The notes beneath the pieces were generated by a model. The model saw nothing but the letters and a program-made list of their open reading frames with translations, was not told where the DNA came from and searched no databases. Below are positions 1,874-51,684 of a stretch of DNA of 64,000 bases, piece by piece. How positions within the stretch are numbered: position 1 is the first letter of the stretch; each line of letters starts with the position of its first letter. A program made the position numbers and the translations under genes. Origin of the DNA: an uncultured Planctomycetales bacterium (GTDB lineage Bacteria; Omnitrophota; Gorgyraeia; Zapsychrales; JANLHA01); the NCBI GenBank assembly GCA_964489065.1, contig CAZAXH010000002.1:214177-278176 (forward strand). The letters are read 5' to 3'.

Positions 1874-2154
1874 ACACCCTGTTTGTGCCGGATTTTGTTT
1901 TAAGATCTGTCCTTTAGAGCATTTTGAGAGTCCTTCGTGATATTCCCTTTTCCTGTAATGTGATGAAGTGGCGGGGCGGTGCTTTTTTGTTTTCTGTGTG
2001 GGATGCGATAAGGTATGCCGGTTTCGGTCGTCCGGTCCGGATTGCTTTCTTGGGGAAAAGGGATGGGGCCGTCAAACATGTTTTGCCGTTGAAATCTTGG
2101 CCCTTTTGCGTCTGTGAAACACGCATAACATAAATTGCTTCCCCTTGGAACAAG

Positions 2155-2167
2155 AGATGCTATAATA
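2155..2167 (+). promoter_or_regulatory. extended -10 promoter (TGcTATAAT) about 30 nt upstream of repeat copy A
   Basis: gaTGcTATAAT at 2157-2167. Confidence 0.35.
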
Positions 2168-2202
2168 CATAAAAATTTTCCGGTTATTTCAGCCGGAGTT
2201 TC

Positions 2203-2400
2203 TTCGATGAGCATTTAGTTTACACGACCCAAGGAAGTGTAAACTAGAAATGCGAATTGATCCTGCGCGAGAGAGCCCAAGCGAACGAGCCGCTGGATGC
2301 TAGTTTTAATACACGACTCAAGAAGGATGGTGGGTTAATACCCAGCAGCTTGCTGCGGTTTATTGAGTCTAGGGCTTGCTCTGGGGTTTATATTTTTGAT
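2203..2400 (+). ncRNA. Copy A of a repeated ~170-200 nt structured element (candidate cis-regulatory leader RNA) immediately 5' of a receiver-domain gene
   Basis: Near-identical to 6371-6540 in the 5' ~85 nt and 3' ~60 nt. Contains a 10-bp perfect stem TAGTTTACAC/GTGTAAACTA and tandem hairpins with GCUUGC-type loops; ends 18 nt before ATG 2418. Confidence 0.6.
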
Positions 2401-2417
2401 TATGATGGGAACTCGGT

Positions 2418-2810
2418 ATGTTTGATGTTAAAGCAACGGTCTTAATAGTCGATGATGACGAAGTAACGCGCAGGTTGCTGGAGAAGATCCTTATTAATAA
2501 TTCTTATAAGGTCGAAACAGCGGCTCACGGCTTAGAGGGCATTAAGAAGTACTGGCGTTCCCGTCCTGATTTGATCGTCCTGGATATCCAGATGCCGGTT
2601 ATGGATGGCTTTGAATTTATTGCGGAATTTAAGAAGATCGGGGATTTGAAGCGCACTCCTATCATCATCCTGACGTCTTTCGAAACAAAGCAGGCGGCTA
2701 TGGCGGTGGAAGGCATTGATGATTATTTCACGAAACCTTTTAAAATGAGTGAGTTGGTCAGCCGTATTGATGAACTGGTCTTGAAGAAAAACGCTGAAAA
2801 CAGCCCCTGA
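2418..2810 (+). CDS. response regulator, receiver domain only (CheY-like)
   Basis: VLIVDDDEVTRRLL...DLIVLDIQMPVMDGFEF...K (DD, phospho-Asp, Lys). Confidence 0.85.
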   Translation: MFDVKATVLIVDDDEVTRRLLEKILINNSYKVETAAHGLEGIKKYWRSRPDLIVLDIQMPVMDGFEFIAEFKKIGDLKRTPIIILTSFETKQAAMAVEGIDDYFTKPFKMSELVSRIDELVLKKNAENSP

Positions 2811-3024
2811 AATTCGCCTGCGGCTTTGAAGGCAAAGGATGCCCCGGGGGTTTGAACTTGAAAAATCCAGACGTCTTCCCTTCACGGATATTCCATGATT
2901 TCTATAAAACAAGTTATTGCCGGGCGAGTGCGTAAGAAAAGACGTCCGTAAGGGCAGGGGAACGGCGCTTACGGAGTTCCCCTGGCGTCTGCACCACACG
3001 GCCGGCGGATGGAACAGATGCACC

Positions 3025-4950
3025 ATGATATACGATGCGTTTCAACAAAAAGCCATTGATATTATTAACTCCGGACAGTCCGTCTTGGTTTCTGCCCCGA
3101 CGGGGGCGGGCAAGACGGTCATTGCCGAGCATGTGATATTGACATCCTTGCAGCAAAAAAGCAAGGTCGTTTATACCGCTCCCATTAAAGCCCTGTCCAA
3201 CCAGAAATATCGGGATTTCCAGACCCAGTTCTCGGACTCCGTTGGCATCCTTACGGGGGATGTCAGCATTAATCCGAACGCGCCCGCGCTTATTATGACA
3301 ACGGAAATTTTCCGGAATAAAATCGTGGAGGATAAAGAGACCCTCCGGGACTATTCCTGGGTCATTTTTGACGAAATCCATTATCTCGATGACTATGAAC
3401 GGGGAACGGTCTGGGAGGAGGCCCTGATTCTTATGCCGGATCATATGAATATCCTCGGGCTCTCTGCCACAGTGCCCAATATTGAACAACTGGGGCGCTG
3501 GATAGAAAGGGTGCACGGGAGGCCTGTTAAGATTGTTAAGGAACACAGACGGCCGGTCCCGCTTCATTTCTTTTATCAGTGCCAGAATGAAATCTATGAT
3601 GATTTTCAGAAATTTATTAAAGACGGTTACCGGGGCGTCATCCCTCCGCGTTCCGGGCAGGAAAGGTCAAGCCATTCGTTGGATGTCAAACCCAACCGGT
3701 TATCGACCCTGGTGAAACATCTTAAAGAAAAGGGACTGTTTCCTTGTATCTATTTTGTCTTCAGCCGCAAACGGACGGAATATCTGGCGCAGGAGCTGCA
3801 GCATTTTAATTTTCTCGACGGCCGGGAAGAGCAGGACGTCCGGGCGATGTATGATGCGTTATGCGAACGGTTTGACCTGACGGCGGAAGCCAGCGCCGCC
3901 AAACTACGCCCTTTCGTCGAGCGGGGAATTGCTTATCATCATGCCGGGATGCTCCCCACGCTCAAGGAAGTTGTGGAAAGGTTGTTCACGAGTCGCTTGA
4001 TAAAAGTTATATTCACGACCGAAACGTTTGCCTTGGGGATCAATATGCCCGCGCGGACCGTTGTTTTCGACGAGATGAGGAAGTTTTACGGGCGTTCCTT
4101 TAGTGTTATGAAGACGAGAGATTTTTACCAGATGGCCGGCCGGGCCGGACGGCGCTCCATTGATCAGGAAGGATTTGTGTTTTGCCGGGTTAACCCGTTT
4201 CAGGTTTCTGCCCGGAATCTGCACGATATGATCCACAACACGCCGGAACAGGTTTCTTCCCGGTTTAACCTGTCGTACGCTACGATTCTGAATTTATTTC
4301 ATCAGTATCAGGACCGTATGGTGGATATTTATCCCCGCTCTTTGCATTTTTATCAGGAGAAGAAAATTTCCCGGAGTAAAGCCGTCCGTCTCCTGCAGCG
4401 GAAAATGAAAGTCCTGAAGGACATGAAATACATCCAGGACGGGGAATTGACGGAGAAGGGACTGTTCGCGAGCCGGGTCTACGGTTATGAGCTGATTCTT
4501 TCTGAACTGTTTTCCTGGGGGATTTTTGATAAACTTTCTTTGATGGAACTGGGAGTCCTTTGCATCGCGGTTGTTTATGAGCCGCGAAAGGGCGCCCAGA
4601 AACCGAAACTGCGCGGGCAGACGAAAGTCCTCGAGAGGATCACCTCGGATGCTATTAAGATGATTCATAAAGTGGAAAAACGGGCTGATATTAAACCTTT
4701 AAGTAAGATGTGTTATTTTCATCTGGCCGAAGCCATGGAAGGATGGATTAAGGGGGAGTCTTTTGACCGTATTTTGCAATATTCTGATGCGGATGAGGGA
4801 GAGGTCGTCCGGTATTTTAGGATGGTCCTGCAGGTTTTGCGGGAACTTCAGGAAACCCCTTTGCCGGATCAGGCCAAGGAGCAGATCGGAAAACTTGTCA
4901 GGATTATTGACCGTGATGTGGTGGATTCGGAACGGCAACTTCGGGGATAA
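3025..4950 (+). CDS. Ski2-like DEAD/DEAH-box superfamily-2 helicase
   Basis: Walker A SAPTGAGKT, DEIH box (FDEIHYLDD), helicase C domain; ATG 3025 chosen (MIYDAFQQKAID...). Confidence 0.8.
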   Translation: MIYDAFQQKAIDIINSGQSVLVSAPTGAGKTVIAEHVILTSLQQKSKVVYTAPIKALSNQKYRDFQTQFSDSVGILTGDVSINPNAPALIMTTEIFRNKIVEDKETLRDYSWVIFDEIHYLDDYERGTVWEEALILMPDHMNILGLSATVPNIEQLGRWIERVHGRPVKIVKEHRRPVPLHFFYQCQNEIYDDFQKFIKDGYRGVIPPRSGQERSSHSLDVKPNRLSTLVKHLKEKGLFPCIYFVFSRKRTEYLAQELQHFNFLDGREEQDVRAMYDALCERFDLTAEASAAKLRPFVERGIAYHHAGMLPTLKEVVERLFTSRLIKVIFTTETFALGINMPARTVVFDEMRKFYGRSFSVMKTRDFYQMAGRAGRRSIDQEGFVFCRVNPFQVSARNLHDMIHNTPEQVSSRFNLSYATILNLFHQYQDRMVDIYPRSLHFYQEKKISRSKAVRLLQRKMKVLKDMKYIQDGELTEKGLFASRVYGYELILSELFSWGIFDKLSLMELGVLCIAVVYEPRKGAQKPKLRGQTKVLERITSDAIKMIHKVEKRADIKPLSKMCYFHLAEAMEGWIKGESFDRILQYSDADEGEVVRYFRMVLQVLRELQETPLPDQAKEQIGKLVRIIDRDVVDSERQLRG

Positions 4951-5073
4951 CCGGCTTGTTATTGATGTTAGACAAGAGCCGTCAAATGGTGTATAGTATC
5001 TCGGGTTAAAAGCGGCTGGCACATTATTCCCCTTGGGGAGAGGGGAGCAACGGGTTAGAAAAGGAGGTGGGCG

Positions 5074-5469
5074 ATGACAGAAATGAAAGATTTATTTCAA
5101 AACGCTGACTGGAAAAAGGAAAAACACGTCCCGGTGATTCAGGCCCCGGCCAAAGTTCAGAAAGGGGAGGTCGTTAAAGTGACCGCGACCATCGGGAAGG
5201 AAATCCCTCATCCCAACACAACCGCTCATCACATTAGCTGGGTTACGGTCTTTTTTCACCCGGAAGGCGAAAAGTTCCCTTTTGAAATCAGCCGGACGGA
5301 ATTTTCCGCGCATGGGGCATCAGCCAATGGGGCGGATACGAGTACGGTTTATACTCAATATGAAACCCAGTCGAGTTTTAAAACAGATAAGGCCGGGACA
5401 ATCATAGCTGCGAGTTATTGTAATATCCATGGGTTATGGCAAAGTTCCCAGCCGCTCGCCGTAGAGTAA
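5074..5469 (+). CDS. superoxide reductase (neelaredoxin / 1Fe-SOR, desulfoferrodoxin centre II type)
   Basis: EKHVPVI motif, His/Cys ligands (H..H, CNIHG), ~130 aa; RBS AAGGAGG. Confidence 0.8.
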   Translation: MTEMKDLFQNADWKKEKHVPVIQAPAKVQKGEVVKVTATIGKEIPHPNTTAHHISWVTVFFHPEGEKFPFEISRTEFSAHGASANGADTSTVYTQYETQSSFKTDKAGTIIAASYCNIHGLWQSSQPLAVE

Positions 5470-5504
5470 ACAAGGATGAATTTTATAAAAAAGGGAGGCC
5501 CTTC

Positions 5505-5690
5505 ATGAGAGCGAAGGTCGATAAGGAGTTATGCATGGGATGTGAGTTATGTGTTCAAACATGCGGAGAGGTTTTTCAAATGAAAGATGGCGTGGCTTTT
5601 GCTGCTGTTGATCCGGTTCCGGAAGATTGTGAAGATTTATGCCAGCAGGCGGCGGATGATTGCCCGGTCGAGGCGATAAAAATTCTATAA
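5505..5690 (+). CDS. 4Fe-4S ferredoxin
   Basis: CMGCELCVQTCG ... CPVEAI; RBS AAGGGAGG 7 nt upstream of ATG 5505. Confidence 0.75.
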   Translation: MRAKVDKELCMGCELCVQTCGEVFQMKDGVAFAAVDPVPEDCEDLCQQAADDCPVEAIKIL

Positions 5691-5710
5691 GCCGGAGGAG
5701 AGTTTTTAGA

Positions 5711-5749
5711 ACACAGGCAGGCTTTTTCAGGTCTGCCTGTGTTTTTTGG
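5711..5749. terminator. bidirectional rho-independent terminator between convergent ferredoxin and yjbQ
   Basis: acacaggcag...ctgcctgtgt stem followed by TTTTTT; A-rich on the other side. Confidence 0.6.
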
Positions 5750-5776
5750 ATATGAACTTACAAGGGGCCCTCTTGA

Positions 5777-6172
5777 TTACCCCGCGATAAATTTAATCCA
5801 TATTTCACGGGAACGCGGGCCATCAAATTCCATGAAGTAGATTCCCTGCCATGTCCCCAACTGGATACAGCCGTTTTCAACCAGAAAAGTCTGCGAGAAA
5901 TTGATTAGCGCGCCTTTAATATGGGCGTCGGAATTCCCTTCGCTGTGCCTGAAATCTGCGGATGGGGGTACCGCTTCTTTTAAGAAGGAGAGTAAATCCC
6001 GTTTGACGTCCAGGTCGGCGTTTTCATTGACGCTTAAAGCTGCGGTCGTGTGTGGGGAGTACAGGGCGAGGATTCCCGCCTGCCAGCGTTTCTTCCTGAC
6101 AATAGTCTGTAAGTTTTCTGTAATATCAAGGATTTCTTCACGTGCGTGGGTATTAATCCGGATGATGTGCAT
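5777..6172 (-). CDS. yjbQ: YjbQ/UPF0047 family protein (secondary thiamine-phosphate synthase family)
   Basis: HTTAAL...GTWQGIYFMEFDGPRSR motif; start taken at MHIIRINT (ATG 6172); the longer 186-aa ORF translates the upstream repeat. Confidence 0.75.
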   Translation of the reverse strand: MHIIRINTHAREEILDITENLQTIVRKKRWQAGILALYSPHTTAALSVNENADLDVKRDLLSFLKEAVPPSADFRHSEGNSDAHIKGALINFSQTFLVENGCIQLGTWQGIYFMEFDGPRSREIWIKFIAG

Positions 6173-6175
6173 GAT

Positions 6176-6245
6176 TTGATATCCCGCAGATTGCTGTGGT
6201 TCATTGAGTCCAGAGCTTGCTCTGGGGTTTACGCCTTTAATTATA
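6176..6245 (+). ncRNA. Copy B (3' module only) of the repeated structured element
   Basis: ttgatatcccgcagattgctgtggttcattgagtccagagcttgctctggggttt matches the 3' ends of copies A and C; first hairpin carries G·U-compatible changes. Confidence 0.55.
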
Positions 6246-6320
6246 ACGGAAGGTTCCCTTTGTTGCCAGGGGGGATAACGATAAATAAAAATTTGATATA
6301 AAAGGCCGAAATTTTGAGGT

Positions 6321-6350
6321 TTTATCTTGAGGTCCATTTCGTCTGCTGTT
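6321..6350 (+). promoter_or_regulatory. putative promoter (TTGAGG-17-TAGTAT) about 20 nt upstream of repeat copy C
   Basis: spacing and hexamers read directly. Confidence 0.35.
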
Positions 6351-6370
6351 AGTATGAATATAAATATTTA

Positions 6371-6540
6371 TTCAATGAGCATTTAGTTTGCACGACCCAA
6401 GGGAGTGTAAACTAGAAATGCGAATTGATCCTGAAGCGAGAGAGCCCAGGCGAACGAGTGAAGGATATTGGTTGAATATCCCGCAGCTTGCTGCGGTTCA
6501 TTGAGTCCAGAGCTTGCTCTGGGGTTCATACCTTTGATTT
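6371..6540 (+). ncRNA. Copy C of the repeated structured element, 5' of the hybrid sensor kinase gene
   Basis: Aligned with copy A (2203-2400): same 10-bp stem, conserved cgaattgatcctg.gcgagagagccca.gcgaacgag block, variable middle, tandem 3' hairpins. Confidence 0.6.
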
Positions 6541-6648
6541 CAAAATAGTTTAAGAATAAACAATTTTTGCGGATTTTATCGACGTCCATAACCTATATGC
6601 CGGGTTAATTTGTATCCCGGAATAAACGTGTCCTGGGCCAGTGCGGAT

Positions 6649-9237
6649 ATGAAGAATCGAATAAGTCTCGATTTTAAGATCATGATTTCTCTTCTTCTCG
6701 TGTCGTTGGTCCCCTTCCTGTGCACCCTTTTTCTGATTCATAAAATAATAGCGCAGCGTGTCCGGCAGGAAAGCGCGGAGGGACTCATAACCTATGTCCG
6801 GCTTATTGGCAAGCAGGTTGAGAGCCTGGTTGCCCTGACTTTGATGCATACAGAAACAATGGCGAGGAGCCCGGGGTTTACGTCCGGGGATAATTCTCAA
6901 GATGCGATGACCCGGCGCATCAGCTATGCCTTGAATATTAATAGTCTCTTCGAGGATTTTGTGCTGGTTGATCAGGAAGGGCGGGTTATGGCTTCTACAT
7001 CTGATCAATCCCCGGAAGATTGGAAAGGGCAACCATGGTTTTATGCCGGCCTCCGGGGGAAATCGACAGTTTCCCCTGTCCAGGCCGTCACGATGCCCTT
7101 CCGTTTGGTTTATTGGACCGTGGCGCCCGTTTTCCGTGATGACGGAAGCGTGTCAGCCCTGATGATGGGCCGGGTAAGGCTGGGAGACATCAGCCAGTTA
7201 GCCCACCATCAGCTTGTCCGCCGGGGAGGACAAATTTTTATCGTGGATGACCAGGGATATCTTTTGGACTACCCTGATTACAAAAAATTATTATATCAGT
7301 TGGACCCGGAAGGTCTTCGGCAAAAAGTCCTGGCGGCCCAGGAGGGGTTCTGGGAGTTTACGGACAGCACCAGGGTCCCGAAAGTTTGCGCTTTTACTAT
7401 CATGACCGGGTTCGGCGGCTATCCCGGCCAGGGATGGCGCATCGGGATCATTCATGACCGTCAGGAGGTTTTTGCGGTCATGGATAGAATTAAGCAGCAG
7501 GCTTTGTGGATTGCTATCGTTGGGGGATTTCTTATTATCCTGTTGTCGCCTTTGTTGAGCATGGCCATTGTCGATCCGGTGAAAAAATTGGTGGAAGCTT
7601 CTGCCCGCATTGCGAACGGTGATTTAAATAGCCCGGTGCGCATCAGTTCTGACGATGAAATCGGTGATTTGGCGGCTTGTCTTAATGATATGGTCCGGAA
7701 AATCCGGTTTTCCCGAGGGGAATTGGAAGCGGAAAAAGAGCGGCTGGCTGTGACGTTGCGGTCAATCACGGATGCGGTGATTACGGTGGATCTGCAGGAC
7801 AGGATAATATTGATGAGTGAAACGGCGGAGAAACTGTGCGGGATGATGCAGGAGGATGTGCGAAATAAAAAATTCACGGAAATTTTTTCTTTTGAAGACA
7901 TACAATTCAGCCCCGGGGAGGACCCGTACCTTTTGCAGATTAAAGAAAGTTGTTTCTCCGTGAAGGGCCGGAGGCGGTGTCTGAAAAATCCGTCGGGAAA
8001 ATTGAAGATGGTAATTTTTAACGCGGCGCCGATTAAAGATCACAATAACGATCTTATTGGGATAGTGGTTGTTTTGCAGGATATTACCGCGGAAGAAAGA
8101 ATCCGGGAGGAACTCAATAAAGTCCAGAAACTAGAAACGATCGGGGTCCTGGCCGGTGGGATCGCGCATGATTTTAATAATATTCTGACGTCCATCGTCG
8201 GGAATGTTTCCCTGGCGAAGTTTAACATGGAGCCGCAGAGCGAGGAGTTTGCGTTGCTCACGGAGGTCGAAAAAACATCTATGGAGGCCAAACAATTGAC
8301 CCAGCAGCTTCTGGCGTTCTCCAAAGGAGGTGCCCCGATCAAGAAGATTATGAAAGTCGGCCCGTTGATCAAGGAATCCGTTGGTTTTGTTTCCCGCGGG
8401 TCCAATGTCGTTTGCTCTTATGATATCTCTGGCGAACTTTGGCCGGCGGAAATTGACGCTGGCCAGATCCGCCAGGTTTTGCATAACTTGACGATTAACG
8501 CCATTCAAGCTATGCCTAAGGGCGGGGGGCTGCAGATATCGGCCAAGAATATTGTGGTTCAGAAAGAACATAATCTCCCTATCCCCGCAGGGATGTATAT
8601 CCTAATATCCGTGCGGGATGAGGGGGTGGGGATCCCGGAAGATGACCTTCCCAAGATTTTTTCCCCGTTTTTTACGACTAAGGCGACGGGAAACGGGTTG
8701 GGATTGGCCGGGAGTTTTTCGATTATCAAAAAACACGGGGGGCACATGACGCTCTCCTCCCGGGTGAATGTCGGCACGACCTTTCATATTTATTTGCCGG
8801 CCACCAATCGTGAAGTTGAGTCAGAAATCACGATGACCCTGGATATCGTCCAAGGGCAGGGACGGGTGTTGGTTTTGGATGACGAATCGCTGGTCAGGGG
8901 GTTATTTGGGCAGTTTTTATTCCGGTTTGGGTTTGAAGTGGTGTTAACAACAAGCGGGGAGGAAGCTGTTGAAAAGTTCAGAGACGCCCAGGAGCAGGGG
9001 CGGCCTTTTTCTTTGGTTATCTTAGACTTGACGATCCGCGGCGGCATGGGGGGAAAGGATACGTTACAGGAACTGCAGAAAATTGATCCCCGCGTCAAGG
9101 CGATCGTGACAAGCGGGTACTCCAATGACCCCGTGATGTCGCAATATCAGAAGTACGGGTTTAAAGGGATGTTGACAAAGCCCTTTAATTTTGACGAGTT
9201 GAATATTATCATTAGACAAGTTCTTGCGCAAGGCTAG
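6649..9237 (+). CDS. hybrid sensor histidine kinase (periplasmic Cache-like sensor, HAMP, PAS, HisKA, HATPase_c, C-terminal REC)
   Basis: TM-flanked extracytoplasmic domain, HAMP, H-box LAGGIAHDFNN, G-boxes, C-terminal receiver VLVLDDE...LVILDL; alternative TTG start at 6610. Confidence 0.85.
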   Translation: MKNRISLDFKIMISLLLVSLVPFLCTLFLIHKIIAQRVRQESAEGLITYVRLIGKQVESLVALTLMHTETMARSPGFTSGDNSQDAMTRRISYALNINSLFEDFVLVDQEGRVMASTSDQSPEDWKGQPWFYAGLRGKSTVSPVQAVTMPFRLVYWTVAPVFRDDGSVSALMMGRVRLGDISQLAHHQLVRRGGQIFIVDDQGYLLDYPDYKKLLYQLDPEGLRQKVLAAQEGFWEFTDSTRVPKVCAFTIMTGFGGYPGQGWRIGIIHDRQEVFAVMDRIKQQALWIAIVGGFLIILLSPLLSMAIVDPVKKLVEASARIANGDLNSPVRISSDDEIGDLAACLNDMVRKIRFSRGELEAEKERLAVTLRSITDAVITVDLQDRIILMSETAEKLCGMMQEDVRNKKFTEIFSFEDIQFSPGEDPYLLQIKESCFSVKGRRRCLKNPSGKLKMVIFNAAPIKDHNNDLIGIVVVLQDITAEERIREELNKVQKLETIGVLAGGIAHDFNNILTSIVGNVSLAKFNMEPQSEEFALLTEVEKTSMEAKQLTQQLLAFSKGGAPIKKIMKVGPLIKESVGFVSRGSNVVCSYDISGELWPAEIDAGQIRQVLHNLTINAIQAMPKGGGLQISAKNIVVQKEHNLPIPAGMYILISVRDEGVGIPEDDLPKIFSPFFTTKATGNGLGLAGSFSIIKKHGGHMTLSSRVNVGTTFHIYLPATNREVESEITMTLDIVQGQGRVLVLDDESLVRGLFGQFLFRFGFEVVLTTSGEEAVEKFRDAQEQGRPFSLVILDLTIRGGMGGKDTLQELQKIDPRVKAIVTSGYSNDPVMSQYQKYGFKGMLTKPFNFDELNIIIRQVLAQG

Positions 9238-9811: not shown

Positions 9812-10011
9812 TTCAGGGAACGGGATCGCAGGAGTTTCTTGCTGATAATATCTATATGCCTTTACAGAAAATCATGGGCACGCCCGCGGATGAAGGCAAG
9901 AGGTTCTGCTTCGCGGGTGTTCGCCTAAATGTTAAGATGTTATGGAAAATTCCGAGAAGCGAATAGTTAACAGGGGCCGCGTCTAGGGGCGCGGGACTGG
10001 GAGCGGCCGGA

Positions 10012-10242
10012 ATGTCTTTTTATTACTATTTTTGTCCGGAAAACGGGAGGACCGTCGAAGTCCGTCACCCCATGAATGTTCGGCTGGGGACATGGGCTGC
10101 GGTCTGCATCCTGGCCCGGATTGATCCGGGAGGGACGCCGGGCTCATCCCCGGTTCAGAGACTTATAAGCCATGCTGCGCCGATGACTCCTCAATTTCAG
10201 CATTTGGATAAGGAAAAGCCGTCGGATGTCCTGGCGTTGTAG
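10012..10242 (+). CDS. hypothetical small protein
   Basis: 76 aa ORF upstream of rtcB; weak zinc-ribbon-like pattern only. Confidence 0.2.
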   Translation: MSFYYYFCPENGRTVEVRHPMNVRLGTWAAVCILARIDPGGTPGSSPVQRLISHAAPMTPQFQHLDKEKPSDVLAL

Positions 10243-14054: not shown

Positions 14055-15989
14055 ATGTTTGGGAAATTAAAGCTTGTCCATAAACTGGTTTTTATTTTAC
14101 TTGTCATCGCCTTATTCCCTATACTTATTATTGGAATAACTTATTATCATTTAACGAAGGCCGAACTGGAGCAGAAGACCATCGCGGCCCTGCAGGCGGT
14201 TGTGGATTCACGCGCCGCCCATATTAATCATTACATCAAGTTAAGGCAAGAGCAGGCGAAGGCCTTTGCCGGGGCTTTCTTGCCGCGTCAGCTTAAGGAA
14301 ACGGGAGTCAATGAGCCGGCCTTGATTCAGGGCATTCAGGACGACATCAGCTCCATTTTCTTTTTCCTGAATTTGACGCCGTCCGGGCGTTATCAGGACA
14401 TAGATCAGAAGACAGAGGTGCAAACGATCGGGGTGTGGGATGTTCACGGTAATATTATCGCCTCTACGAACCGGGAGTTGGTCGGGCGGAAAATGCCGAT
14501 AGAATATATCCAGAATGTTTATCAATACGGGACCTATTTCGCCGGCTTGGAAAAAGATCCCCTTACCGGGGACAATATGCTTATTTTGCTGGAAGAAATC
14601 CGGAACTGGCAGTCCGGGAATATTGTCGGCGCCATATCCCTGATGATTAAAGCGGATGTTTTGGATAAGGTGACCAGTGCCCGGGAGGGCTTGGGACATT
14701 CCGGGGAAACGTATCTCGTGGATCGGCAGTACCGCATGATCACGAACTCCCGATTCAAGAAAGATTCCATATTGAACATGCGGGTCATTACCGAAGGGAC
14801 ACAGGACTGCTTCCAGTGCCGCAAGGCCCCGCTGATATACACCAATTATCGCAACGTGGACGTGTTGGGCGTGCAGAAATATTTGCCGGATCAGAACTGG
14901 TGTCTTATGGCCGAAGTGGATGTCAATGAGGCTTTTGCCCCGATCCAGCAGTTCCGTCAGCGGTTGCTGTTGACCGGGCTTTTGATGCTTCTGCTGACGG
15001 TGCTGCTGGCTTTTTTGGCCAGCCGGGTTTTTACCCGGCCGATCCTCGCTCTGAACGAAGCTTCGCAAAAGGTGTCCCGTGGGCAGTATAACGTTAAGCT
15101 GCCGGTTAAGAATAGTGATGAAATCGGCCAGTTATCCACTAATTTTAATTTTATGGCGAAGAGACTCGCCGAGGTGAAGGAGGAATTGGAGGAAAAAAAC
15201 AAGACGCTGTTTAAGCATTTGGCTGTTTTGGCGTCGCAAAAAAAAGAGCTCCGGGAGGTCAATGAAGAGCTGGACCGGTTTGTTTATACCGCCAGTCATG
15301 ACCTGCGGGCTCCCTTGCGGGGGATCGCGTCGTTCGCGGCATTCCTGGAGGAGGATTATAAAGACCGGATGGATGCGCAGGGCAAGGAATATATTGATGA
15401 GATCAGAAAAGGGGCGACGAAGATGAATATGCTCATCGAAGACCTGCTGTTATTATCGAGGATATCCCGGATCAAGAATCCGTACGAGTTGACGGATATC
15501 CAAAAGCTCGTTGATTCTGTTTTGGAGCGGCTGAAATATGATATTCAGAAACATAACGCGATCATTCAGATTGCTACAGTGCTCCCGATGGTGTGTTGCG
15601 ACCGGATTAAGATGACGGAGGTGTTCCAGAATCTGATCAATAACGCCATTAAATTTTCGTCCAAGAACAGCGGGGCTCCCCCGCGCGTGGATATCGGGTA
15701 CAGGAAGGACGGGATTTATCACTGCTTTTACGTGAAAGACAACGGCATCGGCATTGACCCGAAGTACCATGAGCAGATTTTCGGGATGTTTAAGCGCCTG
15801 CACACGGATAAGGAATATGACGGGACAGGCGCCGGGCTGTCGATTATCAAGCGAATCATTGAAGACCACGGCGGCCGGGTTTGGGTTGAGTCCCGGGCCG
15901 GAGAAGGGGCGACGTTTCTTTTTAATATCCCGGCGGATCTCAAAGCGGGGGAGGTGGCGTCCCCGCCGCCTCCCGGCGAGTCAGCCTAA
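14055..15989 (+). CDS. sensor histidine kinase (Cache-like periplasmic domain, HAMP, HisKA, HATPase_c)
   Basis: two TM helices, HAMP, H-box YTASHDLRAPLRGI, N/G boxes. Confidence 0.85.
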   Translation: MFGKLKLVHKLVFILLVIALFPILIIGITYYHLTKAELEQKTIAALQAVVDSRAAHINHYIKLRQEQAKAFAGAFLPRQLKETGVNEPALIQGIQDDISSIFFFLNLTPSGRYQDIDQKTEVQTIGVWDVHGNIIASTNRELVGRKMPIEYIQNVYQYGTYFAGLEKDPLTGDNMLILLEEIRNWQSGNIVGAISLMIKADVLDKVTSAREGLGHSGETYLVDRQYRMITNSRFKKDSILNMRVITEGTQDCFQCRKAPLIYTNYRNVDVLGVQKYLPDQNWCLMAEVDVNEAFAPIQQFRQRLLLTGLLMLLLTVLLAFLASRVFTRPILALNEASQKVSRGQYNVKLPVKNSDEIGQLSTNFNFMAKRLAEVKEELEEKNKTLFKHLAVLASQKKELREVNEELDRFVYTASHDLRAPLRGIASFAAFLEEDYKDRMDAQGKEYIDEIRKGATKMNMLIEDLLLLSRISRIKNPYELTDIQKLVDSVLERLKYDIQKHNAIIQIATVLPMVCCDRIKMTEVFQNLINNAIKFSSKNSGAPPRVDIGYRKDGIYHCFYVKDNGIGIDPKYHEQIFGMFKRLHTDKEYDGTGAGLSIIKRIIEDHGGRVWVESRAGEGATFLFNIPADLKAGEVASPPPPGESA

Positions 15990-16022
15990 AGTTTTCTCCC
16001 CTATTCAGCGAAGGAGTGGACC

Positions 16023-16457
16023 ATGAGTTTTAGGATACTTTTAGTGGAGGATAGTGAAGCGGATGTTAAAATAACGCTGCGCGCTTTTCAGCAGTCCTCT
16101 TTGAAGACAGAGATCACGGTGGTCAGCGATGGACAGGAATGCCTGGACTTTGTCCGGCATGAAGGCGCTTATCAGGCGGCTCAAAAGCATCTCCGGCCGC
16201 AGGTGATCCTTTTGGATATTAATATGCCGCGTTGCGACGGGTTTGAAGTGCTCCGGGTTTTAAAAGGGGATGCCGCGACCCGCGCGATTCCTGTCGTGAT
16301 GTTCAGCGCCTCGCGTAACGAGGGGGATGTTGTTAAAAGTTATGAATCTGGGGCTAACGGCTTCATTCAGAAGCCGGTCGACTATGAGGAATTTTTAAAC
16401 ATGGTGGAACAATTTAATCATTACTGGCAAAATTTAAACCGGTTGCCGGAAGCCTGA
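16023..16457 (+). CDS. response regulator, receiver domain only
   Basis: ILLVEDSEADVK...VILLDINMPRCDGFEVL. Confidence 0.85.
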   Translation: MSFRILLVEDSEADVKITLRAFQQSSLKTEITVVSDGQECLDFVRHEGAYQAAQKHLRPQVILLDINMPRCDGFEVLRVLKGDAATRAIPVVMFSASRNEGDVVKSYESGANGFIQKPVDYEEFLNMVEQFNHYWQNLNRLPEA

Positions 16458-16470
16458 TAAGGGATCCATT

Positions 16471-17691
16471 ATGAAGACAAGAATTCTGGTGATTGAAGAT
16501 AATGAACAGGATCAAAAAATTGTCTTGCGTTTTCTTAAAAACCAGGGCTTGGATGATATCATTCTGGCGTCCTCCGGTGGGGAAGGACTTAAAAAAGCCC
16601 GGGAGGCGCTCCCGGACCTGGTCCTGTTGGACACGGTGTTGCCGGATATGGAGGGGTTCGCGGTCTGTCGCCAGCTTAAGGCGAGTTTAGGCCCAGGACT
16701 TAAAGTTATTATGATGACCGGCCAGGTGGCGGCGGTTGAGCCGGAAAAGGCCCGGAGCGCCGGGGCGGATGAATATTGTGTCAAGACTGCGGACGGCCGG
16801 TCTTTGCGGGAAGCCGTGTCCCGTATCCTGCCAAGTCCGGCGGCAGGGACTGTCGGGGACTTGGGATATGCTCTGCCGGCGGCTTTGGGGAGCGGGGGCC
16901 CTGAAGATTGGGGGCCGCACAAAGCCCGGGAGGCCATAAAAATGCTGTCGCTGGAACTGGAGCGGAAGAACGAAGAATTGAAAACCCTGGATCAGCTAAA
17001 ATCCGCTTTTATCGCAAATGTTTCGCATGAGTTAAGGACTCCGTTGACAATTATTAAAGGAGCGGTCAGCCAGGTGATATCGGGCATATACGGGTTGGTG
17101 ACGGAAGAGCAGCGCAAGAAGTTGCTGATGACCCTGCGTAACGCGGAACGTTTGAACCTCATGATCGATGACCTCTTGGATTTTGCCAAACTTGAAGCGA
17201 AACAGGTCCGGCTTGATCTGACGGAGGTGAATCTGGTGGATTTGGTCCGAGAGGTGCACTCCTCGTTTTATAGCCTAGCCGTGGAAAAGGGCTTGGATCT
17301 GAACGTGGAATACCCTGTCGCATCTATGCGGGTGATGGCCGACCGCAACCGTTTGATTCAGGTGTTGATCAATTTGCTCGGGAATGCCCTGAAGTTCACC
17401 GCAAAAGGAGAGATAAAAATTGTTTTAAAAGACGGGCCGGATTACGTTGAATGCCGCATCACGGACACTGGCTGCGGTATTCCCGAGGAGGACCTTCCCA
17501 GGGTTTTTCAGCGTTTTTATCAGGTGGGAACACGCGGCGGGGATAATCCCAAAGGAACGGGGTTAGGCCTGGCTATTTGTAAGGAAATTATAGAGTTGCA
17601 CAAGGGCACGGTTTGGGCCGAAAGTCCCTTTCAAAAAGGGACCGCTGTTGTTTTTACTATACCTAAAAAGAGCGGTCCGTCCGTTCAATAA
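16471..17691 (+). CDS. hybrid REC-histidine kinase (N-terminal receiver, HisKA, HATPase_c)
   Basis: ILVIEDNEQD...LVLLDTVLPDMEGF receiver, then H-box VSHELRTPLT and ATPase boxes. Confidence 0.85.
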   Translation: MKTRILVIEDNEQDQKIVLRFLKNQGLDDIILASSGGEGLKKAREALPDLVLLDTVLPDMEGFAVCRQLKASLGPGLKVIMMTGQVAAVEPEKARSAGADEYCVKTADGRSLREAVSRILPSPAAGTVGDLGYALPAALGSGGPEDWGPHKAREAIKMLSLELERKNEELKTLDQLKSAFIANVSHELRTPLTIIKGAVSQVISGIYGLVTEEQRKKLLMTLRNAERLNLMIDDLLDFAKLEAKQVRLDLTEVNLVDLVREVHSSFYSLAVEKGLDLNVEYPVASMRVMADRNRLIQVLINLLGNALKFTAKGEIKIVLKDGPDYVECRITDTGCGIPEEDLPRVFQRFYQVGTRGGDNPKGTGLGLAICKEIIELHKGTVWAESPFQKGTAVVFTIPKKSGPSVQ

Positions 17692-48778: not shown

Positions 48779-49516
48779 GTGACGGAAGATAAAATAAAAA
48801 TACTGGTTGTCGATGATGATCCTGTGACAAGGCATTTATTGTCTCGTGTCCTTTCTCGCAATAATTTTGAGGTCTCTGTGGCGGTGCATGGGCAGGAAGG
48901 GTTGTCCGTTTATGAAGAAAAGCGGTCGCATATTATTATTCTTGACATCATGATGCCGGTTATGGATGGGTTTGAATTTGTGGCCAGGTTTAAAGCCCGT
49001 TTCGATATCAAGGAAACTCCGATTATTGTTTTATCGTCTCTGTCCAATCAGCAGGATGTCTTCCGGCAGGAGGGGATCAATGACTATATTGTGAAGCCTT
49101 TTAAGTCCGCGCACCTGCTCAGGAAAATCAGGCAGCGGCTCCAGCAGCGCACCAAAAAAATTCTCGTGGTGGATGATGAGCCTGATTTCGTTCACAGCCT
49201 TTCTTTGAGGTTGAGCAACAGTGGCTACCAGGTTATTACGGCTTTTGACGGACTGTCCGCCCTTGAAACCGCTAAGCGCGAAAGACCGGATTTGATGGTC
49301 TTGGATATTATGATGCCCAAGCTGGACGGTTTTAATGTCTGCCGGATGTTAAAATTTGATAATAAATACAAAAACATGAACGTCATCCTACTGACAGCCC
49401 GGGCCGGGGAAGAGACCCGCCGGCTTGGTAAGCAGGTCGGGGCTGATGCGTGCCTGACGAAACCGCATGACGACACCTTCCTTTTGAAGCTCATGAAAGA
49501 ACTTCTGTGGGACTGA
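48779..49516 (+). CDS. response regulator with two tandem receiver domains and no output domain
   Basis: REC1 ILVVDDDPVTRH...IIILDIMMPVMDGF; REC2 ILVVDDEPDF...LMVLDIMMPKLDGF; GTG start. Confidence 0.8.
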   Translation: MTEDKIKILVVDDDPVTRHLLSRVLSRNNFEVSVAVHGQEGLSVYEEKRSHIIILDIMMPVMDGFEFVARFKARFDIKETPIIVLSSLSNQQDVFRQEGINDYIVKPFKSAHLLRKIRQRLQQRTKKILVVDDEPDFVHSLSLRLSNSGYQVITAFDGLSALETAKRERPDLMVLDIMMPKLDGFNVCRMLKFDNKYKNMNVILLTARAGEETRRLGKQVGADACLTKPHDDTFLLKLMKELLWD

Positions 49517-49740
49517 GTCTTTCTCCGTTGTCTCTTCCTGTGTATTTTTTCGTGACTGACTTTCCGCTATCCGCCCGCCCGGGGTTTTTAGTGGCTTCCA
49601 GTGAAAAAATTTTTAAAAGAGTTTACTCGGAGTAAACCCAATGTATAATATTATGGAAGCTCTTGGAAAATAATATTGTTACAAATACTTGACTAAGAAA
49701 TTTTATGACATGGTTTAATGCTTGTATTGATTCTTAATCC

Positions 49741-51684
49741 GTGAAAAAGAAAACTGCGCGCCAAAAACATCCCCAGATTTTTCGACAGCATCTTCTGGAA
49801 GACTTTGTGAACCATATCCCGGATGCGATTTATTTCAAGGATATGAAGGGCCGATTTATTTTTATAAACGCGGCCGGAGCCAAGGGGTTGGGGTTGGCTC
49901 CTGAAGAAGTCCTTGGAAAAACCGACTTGGACGTCTTTCCGCCCCGTCTGGCGAAAAAAGTTATAAAGGACAGCCAGCGTGTTATTAAATCCGGGAAAGC
50001 CATTATTGATCGCGTTGACAAGGTCCCAGACCATTCGGCCGCCGGAGAGGATTTTTATATTTCAACGACGTTGATTCCGCGCTTTGATCATCGGGGGAAG
50101 TGCATTGGAGTCATGGGAATTGCCCGGGACGTGTCCAAACGGATGCAGTTTGAACATCTGCGTGACAAATGGCTGCCGATGGAAAAGAAATTGCTGATGC
50201 TTGAGGAGATGACCCGGGTGAAATCCGATTTCATTTCCGCGGTTTCGCATGAAATCCGCACCCCCCTGGCCATTATCAAACAGCTTTTTATGCTGATTTA
50301 TGATGAAACAGCCGGCCCGATCAATAACCAGCAGCGGGAACTCCTGGTTAAAGCCAATAATAATATTGACCGCCTTCAGCATATCATTGAAGAACTTCTG
50401 GACATTTCCAGGATCGAAGGGCAAAAGTTCAGCCTCAGCTATTCGTTGATTAAGATGAAAGACTTTTTGCTGGACAGCGCGCCTTTCTTTAAGGAGTTTG
50501 CCGCGGAAAAGCAAATTGCCCTCGAATACCGGATGCCCAAGCAGGATATTGCGGTCTTTGTAGACCCGGAGCGTGTTCAGCAGATTATCACCAATTTAAT
50601 CAATAATGCGATTAAATTTACTCCCCCGCACGGAAAGATTGTGGTGGAAGTGAAAGTTTTAAAGTCTAAAGTGCGGGTTGGGGTTCTGGACAACGGCCCG
50701 GGTATTCCGAAAGAAGACCTGTTCAGAATTTTTGAGCGCTTTGTGCAGGTGTCAACGGGTGACGGCGCGAAACGTAAGGGCATTGGATTGGGATTGACGA
50801 TCGTGAAGGCTCTCGTTGAGAAACATGGCGGTGAAATATGGGTTGAGTCCGATGAGGGGAAAGGCAGCCGGTTTTTCTTTACCTTGCCCCGTTTTTACAC
50901 AACGAATATTTTGCCCCCGAAAGTCCGGATCCAAATTAACGCTATGCTTGAGAAACAGAAGTCAGTCAGCCTGGTGAATCTGCTCGTTGTTAATTTTGAG
51001 GATTTCCGGAAAAGGCTTGATATCGACACGAAGAAGATGTTCCGGGATATCCATAAAATTGTTTTCCAGGCGGGCAAGGATGCTTTCAAACGGTTCTCGG
51101 CGGGGGATTATATTTATGTCACGAATTTGAAGGAAGGGGCCGTCAGCGTTGTTTTTCCTTACGCCGTTAAGGAGGAACCGATTTTTTGTGACCTGATCCG
51201 GCAGAGGGTCAAGAATTATTTTCTCAAGAATTCGCTCAATGAAATCTTCATGGCGCTGGGGTTGGTTTCTTATACCAGCGAATCGGTGCGGGGAGAGTTT
51301 GACAGCCAGAATTTTCACATCAAAGAATTATATATCGGCTCGGAAATGAGGCTTTATAAGCGCGTTAAATATCATGTGCGGGTTTGCGTTGCCAGGGGAA
51401 AGGGGGGGGATCTTTTCGCGGACACCCAGGATTTGTCCTTAGGGGGCATTTGCCTGATCATGCAGGCCCCGTTGGCCACAGACGAGCAGGTCGGGTTGGT
51501 GTTTTCGTTATTGAAAATTCGTAAGGAAATATCGGTTCAGGGGCGGGTCGCGTGGGTCAGCCATGTTGAAGATCACTCCATGACCCAGTTTTTGGATTAT
51601 TACCGGATTGGTATCGAATTTACGGGATTGGATAAAAAGCAGCGGGAGATGCTGGCGAAAGAGCTGAGGTTGTATTATGAGTAA
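49741..51684 (+). CDS. PAS sensor histidine kinase with C-terminal PilZ domain
   Basis: PAS, H-box VSHEIRTPLAII, HATPase_c, then a C-terminal PilZ-like domain (RVKYHVRVCVARGKGG...DLSLGGICL...GRVAWV); GTG start. Confidence 0.75.
   Translation: MKKKTARQKHPQIFRQHLLEDFVNHIPDAIYFKDMKGRFIFINAAGAKGLGLAPEEVLGKTDLDVFPPRLAKKVIKDSQRVIKSGKAIIDRVDKVPDHSAAGEDFYISTTLIPRFDHRGKCIGVMGIARDVSKRMQFEHLRDKWLPMEKKLLMLEEMTRVKSDFISAVSHEIRTPLAIIKQLFMLIYDETAGPINNQQRELLVKANNNIDRLQHIIEELLDISRIEGQKFSLSYSLIKMKDFLLDSAPFFKEFAAEKQIALEYRMPKQDIAVFVDPERVQQIITNLINNAIKFTPPHGKIVVEVKVLKSKVRVGVLDNGPGIPKEDLFRIFERFVQVSTGDGAKRKGIGLGLTIVKALVEKHGGEIWVESDEGKGSRFFFTLPRFYTTNILPPKVRIQINAMLEKQKSVSLVNLLVVNFEDFRKRLDIDTKKMFRDIHKIVFQAGKDAFKRFSAGDYIYVTNLKEGAVSVVFPYAVKEEPIFCDLIRQRVKNYFLKNSLNEIFMALGLVSYTSESVRGEFDSQNFHIKELYIGSEMRLYKRVKYHVRVCVARGKGGDLFADTQDLSLGGICLIMQAPLATDEQVGLVFSLLKIRKEISVQGRVAWVSHVEDHSMTQFLDYYRIGIEFTGLDKKQREMLAKELRLYYE

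Follow-up and report, generated by a model that had tools for sequence, protein, structure and literature searches.

The BOX elements of Streptococcus pneumoniae are dispersed repeats composed of boxA, a variable number of tandem boxB modules, and boxC; they fold tightly and are co-transcribed (PMC3049150). Terminal inverted repeats are mentioned for BOX, ISSpn2 has been proposed as its mobilizer, and a regulatory role was suspected early because of the closeness of copies to particular genes (PMC3049150). In this study, we describe a family of non-coding repeats represented by three copies (A, B, and C) in a 64-kb stretch of DNA, hereafter the window, from an uncultured Omnitrophota bacterium (contig CAZAXH010000002.1, positions 214,177 to 278,176). 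The family is likely a lineage-restricted, dispersed, insertion-like, and modular intergenic repeat that resembles BOX elements, the closest build described to date. Its insertion behavior rests on presence or absence between relatives and on an exclusively intergenic location. The repeat is probably co-transcribed as a structured untranslated region.

The likeness to BOX lies in fixed end modules that enclose a variable number of tandem internal modules, in an intergenic location with tens to hundreds of sites in a genome, in a unit number that varies between strains, and in the early suspicion of regulation. As for differences, there is no sequence similarity, and the two families belong to different phyla. 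Terminal inverted repeats, a target-site duplication, a candidate mobilizer, and a known insertion-sequence partner are lacking here, and the present family has longer units, of approximately 90 nucleotides (nt), a T-rich motif at the left flank, and a strong bias toward the sense orientation.

The window was assigned to Candidatus Omnitrophota by its helicase gene, which adjoins REC, a response regulator gene. Related loci were coded L001, L003, L021, and so on. L003 is part of the metagenome-assembled genome JAGOJP01; its helicase is 98% identical to that of the window, and its DNA is approximately 94% identical over 12.7 kb. L021 (JAKQKX01) represents a sister species with 91% helicase identity to the window. 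Metagenome contigs were scanned with a 23-base motif from the repeat unit, which yielded 28 loci, and the family catalog was built by BLAST and a covariance model, R1. The flanking sequence examined comprised approximately 5 kb around each copy. Genes around related loci were called heuristically, by greedy selection of the longest open reading frames (ORFs). A pattern from the 3' block, GGTTYATTGAGTCNNNNGCTTGCNNNNGGGGTT, gave zero matches in genome and metagenome contigs; this pattern was over-strict, because L003 has GAATC where the window has GAGTC.

The catalog holds approximately 33 arrays with more than 50 units, and every array is intergenic. Nearly all of the motif loci (26 of 28) come from one activated-sludge assembly (UPTA01) with an even coverage of 6-8x. 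About half of the 28 lie at contig ends, as expected of a repeat that breaks assemblies. R1 was also run on 21 other Omnitrophota loci (approximately 310 kb, with L021 among them) and detected no unit. The 23-base motif had 0 matches in viral contigs; a looser 16-base motif had 29 matches there, and the covariance model dismissed all of them as chance matches. The family seems confined to one Omnitrophota species-level lineage.

In the window, copy A lies 5' of a gene for a response regulator with a receiver domain (REC), copy C lies 5' of a hybrid histidine kinase gene, and copy B adjoins yjbQ. L003 has the element at all three sites. L021 retains the genes and both promoters (TGcTATAAT for REC; TTGAGG, a 17-nt spacer, and TAGTAT for the kinase), and the element is absent from its REC, kinase, and yjbQ sites. 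The promoters belong to the genes and not to the element, because they are kept in the element-free L021. At the kinase site, the alignment of the window with L021 is perfect up to ...ATATTTATT. The window then continues with CAATGAGC...CCTTTGATT, and homology with L021 returns at T(C/A)AAAA. The difference at this site is a clean insertion or deletion of the entire element.

The REC site differs in the number of units. The leader of REC, taken as the distance between the -10 box and the ATG, measures approximately 45 nt in L021, 250 nt in the window, and 540 nt in L003. L003 carries five tandem 89-nt units and a single fused hairpin at this site, compared with approximately 1.3 units in the window. 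At yjbQ of L021 (13100-13170), TTGGCA is followed by an 18-nt spacer and TATAAT, and the -10 box lies 6 nt before the ATG, which suggests a nearly leaderless mRNA. In the window and L003, copy B fits exactly between the yjbQ -10 box and the ATG. Copy B would give yjbQ a leader of approximately 65 nt made of antisense element hairpins, with GGGA approximately 10 nt before the AUG.

A second array in L003, immediately 3' of the stop codon of a membrane-protein ORF, has five units of 91 nt followed by the 3' block. This array is part of a 3.15-kb segment (L003 4376-7530) that is absent from the window (at approximately 839-843). The segment comprises an ATP-binding cassette transporter ATPase gene, the membrane-protein ORF (558 amino acids; no Pfam match), and the five-unit array. 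Its right edge lies approximately 190 nt past the array; hence, the element ends do not delimit this insertion or deletion.

Nearly all complete copies share one module order: a left end, one to five tandem units of approximately 90 nt, and a 3' block. The left end, CAATGAGCATTTAG..., forms the foot of a long hairpin, P1. The unit is 89-95 nt long and consists of a P1-type hairpin and a helix, AUCCU(U/G)...(A/C)AGGAU, around the conserved purine-rich GCGAGUGAGCCCAGGCGAACGAG. The 3' block consists of two G(CUUG)C hairpins, at times merged into one, and ends with CCTTTGATT. Both 5'-truncated and 3'-truncated copies were found.

Hybrid single 3' hairpins, in which the 5' arm comes from hairpin 1 and the 3' arm from hairpin 2 (as in CCCAGCAGCTTGCTCTGGGG), were seen at L003 9346-9369, at L026 8955-8992 and approximately 10000-10060, and at L029 approximately 8560-8600. 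They look like products of recombination or deletion between two shared AGCTTGCT cores. In L029 (approximately 8600-8890, minus strand), about 330 nt of unique sequence separates the second unit from a degenerate 3' block; this insert may be a small cargo or a nested insertion.

The left flank is exactly TTTATT in 17 of 26 copies; AAAAAA, CACGTT, TTGACT, and others occur in the remainder. The right end is constant, TTT(G/T/A)ATT, irrespective of the left flank, and is therefore not a target-site duplication. TTTATT is part of the target and not of the element, because the empty site of L021 already has it: the filled site reads TTTATT, element, T(C)AAAA, and the empty site of L021 reads TTTATT directly followed by TAAAAA. 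Tandem elements are joined as ...CCTTTTATT followed immediately by CAATGAGC, that is, right end to left end. No terminal inverted repeats were found; the ends are not complementary, and only internal hairpins are present. No target-site duplication was found in the flanks compared. Several copies (in L026, L035, L044, and L051) lie just after a hairpin with a T-run or after a -10 box, which suggests that T-rich terminator or promoter sequences are preferred targets.

The copies in the window and the features around them are as follows (P1 and P2, helices; H1 and H2, hairpins of the 3' block).

2158-2166, plus strand: extended -10 promoter TGcTATAAT of the REC operon, read from the sequence; kept in L003 and in the element-free L021.
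2178-2198, plus strand: short hairpin in the REC leader, just 5' of the insertion point; a terminator-like match in host sequence, outside the repeat.
2199-2204, plus strand: left flank of copy A, TTTCTT, a variant of TTTATT; L003 reads TTTATT here in the left-flank comparison.
2205-2401, plus strand: copy A, full, 102 bits with R1; P1 left-end hairpin 2204-2261; P2 2260-2267 with 2291-2298; unit 1 to approximately 2309; partial second unit at approximately 2310-2332; 3' block 2333-2401 with H1 2342-2358, H2 2369-2384, and terminus TTTGATT.
2418-2810, plus strand: single-domain response regulator (REC) gene 3' of copy A (Pfam PF00072, E=3e-27).
Approximately 6173-6242, plus strand: copy B, 5'-truncated, 3' block only (H1 6184-6199, H2 6210-6225), antisense to yjbQ.
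6240-6269, minus strand: promoter-like site of yjbQ (CTGGCA, 18-nt spacer, TATAAT), with the -10 box adjoining the right end of copy B.
6327-6355, plus strand: hybrid histidine kinase promoter (TTGAGG, 17-nt spacer, TAGTAT); host sequence, kept in L003 and in the element-free L021.
6367-6372, plus strand: left flank of copy C, TTTATT, target-like and also found at the empty site of L021; the window and L021 are aligned to ...TATTTATT and then diverge.
6373-6539, plus strand: copy C, full one-unit element with terminus CCTTTGATT, 104 bits with R1; P1 6372-6428; P2 6428-6432 with 6462-6466; H1 6481-6496; H2 6507-6522.
6649-9237, plus strand: hybrid histidine kinase gene 3' of copy C, with dCache-HAMP-PAS-HisKA-HATPase-REC domains by Pfam; alternative TTG start at 6610.

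These three non-coding segments had been described in an earlier note made from the letters of the DNA, and much of that description holds. The copies are real and far beyond chance: searches of the 64 kb with at most 3 mismatches returned these copies alone, and shuffles expect 0. All three share one orientation, as the note had it, and lie on the plus strand. The 5' blocks of copies A and C are indeed nearly identical (94% over 67 nt). Identity between the 3' blocks of A and C is 85%, and overall the 3' blocks are 73-85% identical to that of copy A. The two tandem 3' hairpins are present with CUUG loops and G-C closing pairs, and copy B is a 3' block only, antisense to yjbQ, that begins directly after CAT (6170-6172), which is the yjbQ start codon in complement. 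Other points need correction. The 10-bp stem TAGTTTACAC-N11-GTGTAAACTA, reported as perfect in both full copies, is perfect in copy A and has one G·T in copy C; it sits within a longer imperfect hairpin that starts at the extreme left end of the element. The middle segment, taken as variable, is in copy A the start of a second repeat unit. The promoters look real, yet they are those of the genes. A spacing of 18-70 nt had been given between the full copies and the signaling genes. Copy A in fact stops 16 nt short of the REC ATG; from the end of copy C, the distance is 70 nt to the TTG at 6610 and 109 nt to the ATG at 6649. The kinase ortholog of L003 is called from the ATG that matches 6649.

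Some further observations concern the surroundings of the copies. The hairpin at 2178-2198 reads TTCCGGTTATTTCAGCCGGAG followed by a T-rich tail; it is also present in L003, and L021 has a different hairpin there. Two Logan contigs from independent public read sets, L001 and L002 (3981 nt; SRR15237810 and SRR21822500), correspond to window 2247-6227 and encode the identical REC protein. They break precisely within copy A and copy B, so the repeat fragments short-read assemblies. An intrinsic terminator, CACAGGCAGGC...GCCTGTG with a T-run, lies after the ferredoxin gene at 5708-5745 and closes the gene string REC, helicase, desulfoferrodoxin, and ferredoxin. Across the window (1-64000), the plus strand carries nearly all long ORFs, and every 2-kb bin has a positive GC skew (+0.08 to +0.24), an unusually strong bias in gene strand and skew.

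The position of copies A and C had led to the proposal of a new cis-regulatory leader or riboswitch-like RNA dedicated to two-component genes, in which a signal-sensing RNA would exert cis control over the REC operon and the gene for the hybrid kinase. Two copies do lie in sense orientation between a promoter and a signaling gene, within 5' leaders and with stable folds, as do leader RNAs such as the cyclic di-GMP riboswitches, and plus-strand folding exceeds that of shuffles (z -3.2 for copy A and -4.0 for copy C). The minus strand, however, also beats shuffles, with z -3.3 for both copies. The REC and kinase orthologs of L021 lack the element despite their kept promoters, and leaders of the same gene hold five units in L003 but approximately 1.3 in the window, a modular variability unlike that of a riboswitch. 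Little covariation is seen in this young family. Rfam at the gathering score had no match in the window or in four related loci, and permissive searches gave nothing relevant at E<=10 (window 1900-6900) or at E<=1 (arrays of L003). No tRNA or tmRNA gene was found in the 64 kb. The absence of a known RNA family, which the note had anticipated by eye, is thus borne out.

The gene context bears on the same proposal. The neighbors of the approximately 33 arrays include lpxA/lpxI, clpB, fabF, and genes for an Iso_dh-family (isocitrate/isopropylmalate) dehydrogenase, a thiamine pyrophosphate enzyme, a signal peptidase (lepB), a TonB-dependent receptor, a phosphoribosyltransferase, a radical-SAM enzyme, and a lipid-A acyltransferase. 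Four further kinase or receiver genes of the window (14055, 16471, 48779, and 49741) have no element. Because of these housekeeping neighbors and element-free kinase and receiver genes, the element is not dedicated to two-component genes, and the closeness of copies A and C to signaling genes is coincidental. A riboswitch-like role at the REC and kinase genes is accordingly very unlikely. Two-component genes abound in the window: the regions 14055-17691 and 48779-51684 encode a dCache-HAMP kinase, a REC-HisKA-HATPase protein, a double-REC protein, and a PAS-kinase-PilZ fusion. The receiver-domain DNA of the two-component genes of the window forms weak direct repeats, which also involve the REC gene at 2418.

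Alternatively, the host may have adopted the repeat as an RNA module whose hairpins and conserved purine-rich loops act on mRNAs genome-wide, be it as a block to 3' exonucleases, as processing or attenuation sites, or as an array of sites for an RNA-binding protein. We consider this unlikely, although it is compatible with spread as a mobile element. Orientation speaks for it. Between co-directional neighbors, 14 sites are sense and 2 are antisense (heuristic ORF calls, with L048 corrected); in L028, L031, and L037 the element matches the adjacent gene against the majority strand of the locus, which favors a link to transcription. Two loci agree with neither a transcription-linked nor a replication-linked orientation, and the signal is confounded by gene-strand bias. 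The folds are also suggestive: the unit helices are approximately 90% paired, the 3' hairpins are 91.6% paired in 19 copies and carry stable CUUG tetraloops, and the single-stranded motifs are invariant. Compensatory changes are few. The 3' hairpins show 0 double-sided changes and pairing not above that of column shuffles, and few double changes are left in the units once three weak matches are removed. A model-fitted alignment of the units exceeds shuffles, but this alignment leans to the model's own structure. The family is young, and its members are approximately 80-95% identical, which gives low power for covariation. The fold of a five-unit array is dominated by inter-unit pairing and is uninformative.

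Mismatch types and divergence bear on the same host-adopted module. G·U exceeds A·C by 14:6 in the 3' block (p=0.115) and by 26:19 in the units (p=0.37), or 40 versus 25 in total; this excess is non-significant and a weak trend at most. The earlier note had taken hairpin differences compatible with G·U as the signature of RNA-level selection. These counts do not sustain that reading, and the differences are not all of this kind, an A/G mismatch in hairpin 1 of copy A being an exception. Identity between the window and L003 is 84.3% for copy B and 87.3% for copy C, against 91.5% for the promoter spacer, 90.8% for the kinase leader, and 91.4% for the yjbQ coding region, and copy C of L003 has four uncompensated breaks in the outer P1. 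Single copies are without visibly stronger constraint than their surroundings, and they diverge at least as much as flanking non-coding DNA. The absence of the element at three sites of the sister species also argues against a host function.

A trans-acting small RNA, or a CsrB/RsmZ-like sponge that binds a CsrA-type protein through GGA motifs, was also considered. Each unit has two such motifs: the P1 loop holds AAGGGAG, and the junctions between units hold (A/C)AGGAUGU. In AAGGAUG the GGA is invariant, and tandem arrays reach five units. In addition, AAGGAUGU resembles ARGGAUGU, the core selected by CsrA in SELEX experiments. Set against these points, the junction GGA is paired in helix P2 and not exposed in a loop, most copies lie between operon genes without a promoter or canonical terminator of their own, and a distribution over approximately 33 loci is unlike that of a sponge gene. 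A tblastn search of 0.6 Mb with CsrA of Escherichia coli and Bacillus subtilis and with Hfq gave only a spurious match in a 229-amino-acid ORF, which by eye looks like a methyltransferase; no csrA was found in this sequence, which is weak evidence. A sponge role is hardly credible. A self-cleaving ribozyme was rejected as well: CUGA- and GAAA-like strings occur in some units only, and Rfam gave no match. A sigma-54 promoter or a site for a dimeric transcription factor at the 3' palindromes was likewise rejected, as the outer arms differ and yet each is self-complementary.

Several points weigh against the interpretation as an insertion-like repeat. No mobilizing gene was identified, flanking ORFs not having been searched systematically for one. 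No fresh transposition event was seen, and mobility rests on presence or absence and on multi-copy spread. Gene calls near the loci are heuristic, and the 26 sludge loci possibly represent more than one strain. Because gene-strand and GC-skew biases are strong, orientation might follow replication and not transcription. Some pairs changed on both sides: in P1, a G:C pair is A:U in 3 copies, and in P2, a U:A pair is G:C in 4 copies and A:U in 1. The motifs GCGAATTGATCC and GCGAACGAG and the GGA of AAGGAUG are near-invariant family-wide and lie outside helices. This non-helical conservation, together with the sense bias, could point to a function as RNA or as a DNA-binding site rather than to selfish spread alone. 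The invariance of the non-helical motifs may reflect the youth of the family, recognition by a mobilizing enzyme, or an RNA function.

As for the mode of movement, the element could be a non-autonomous relative of the IS200/IS605 or REP/RAYT systems. A Y1 HUH transposase would excise it as single-stranded DNA and insert it 3' of TTTATT on the lagging-strand template. The left end of IS608 always inserts 3' of a tetra- or pentanucleotide target (PMC5027513; mechanism also in PMC3201880). In the same manner, the left end of the present family is found 3' of a conserved short motif that is similar to the right end, with a target on the left side only. Lack of terminal inverted repeats and of target-site duplication, hairpins near both ends, and right-end to left-end joins are further likenesses to IS200/IS605 and to palindrome-associated transposable elements. 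In line with the latter, 17 of 26 flanks are TTTATT and the target is present in the empty site. The elements also lie on the G-rich, gene-rich strand, as lagging-strand-template insertion predicts; those of L043 and L045, however, are on the C-rich strand. One TnpA normally recognizes similar hairpins at both ends. Here, the left hairpin (10-bp stem, 11-nt loop) and the right hairpins (6-7 bp, CUUG loop) are dissimilar: TAGTTTACAC-N11-GTGTAAACTA and CCAGAGC-TT-GCTCTGG differ in sequence, stem, and loop. Internal tandem units are atypical of these systems, and no partner carrying tnpA or tnpB is known. No tnpA, tnpB, or RAYT gene was identified, no systematic search having been made. This route is doubtful and is offered as a lead only. 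A mobile unit that includes a shared neighbor gene was rejected, as the ORFs of approximately 560 amino acids that end 23 nt 5' of an element in L003 and L028 are unrelated.

Two other classes of repeats invite comparison. REP sequences are palindromes of 20-40 nt with a conserved 5' tetranucleotide of the GTAG type, and they usually occur as inverted pairs. REP sequences and their composite clusters, BIMEs, share with the present family the formation of hairpins, an intergenic location, variable clusters, transcription within operons, and a non-random orientation, and they are proposed to move as single-stranded DNA by an HUH enzyme without terminal inverted repeats or target-site duplication (PMC3333891). 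The present family differs in its units of approximately 90 nt, its distinct end modules, and the direct orientation of all units. Classical MITEs, which are miniature transposable elements with inverted repeats (ERIC, Correia/CREE, RUP, and Nezha), are likewise small, non-coding, multi-copy, intergenic, and structured once transcribed, and can change how neighboring genes are expressed. A MITE carrying an RNA motif had been the fallback of the earlier note. It caught the dispersed, insertion-like, hairpin-bearing nature of the repeat, but the defining terminal inverted repeats and target-site duplication were sought here and not found.

For the insertion-like modular repeat that we favor, the following course may be envisaged. 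The element would be moved, now or formerly, by an enzyme encoded elsewhere in the genome, which would join a right-end to left-end junction beside a T-rich target; candidates are an HUH/Y1-type single-strand transposase and a site-specific recombinase. Replication slippage or unequal recombination would alter the number of units. As most copies run parallel to the neighboring genes, they are probably transcribed within those mRNAs, and their stable hairpins could have side effects on read-through, on translation, or on the stability of the mRNA. Copies A and C sit between the REC and kinase genes and the promoters that predate the element, which makes both leaders longer.

A stronger interpretation is that the family is either a transcribed, expandable RNA array of approximately 90-nt units used by the host genome-wide, or an undescribed non-autonomous element that inserts 3' of TTTATT. 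In the former case, the arrays would, for instance, bind an RNA-binding protein or serve as stabilizing or processing signals in mRNAs. In the latter, an element without terminal inverted repeats or target-site duplication would use a single-strand or site-specific route. We regard this stronger interpretation as improbable; an RNA-level role or an undescribed mode of movement would, if true, raise the interest of the family.

Omnitrophota are uncultured and often ultra-small bacteria, and their mobile elements are almost unstudied. No modular interspersed repeat appears to have been described for this phylum before; a full-text search on Omnitrophota repeats returned no such element by title. 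The case also shows that look-alike structured leaders of two related genes can mimic a dedicated riboswitch, and that sister genomes and a genome-wide view reveal a dispersed repeat instead. The unusual ends hint at the mode of movement. Variation in the number of units between strains makes the repeat a possible strain marker, and the inserted leaders of REC, the kinase, and yjbQ are natural tests of the effect of structure on gene expression.

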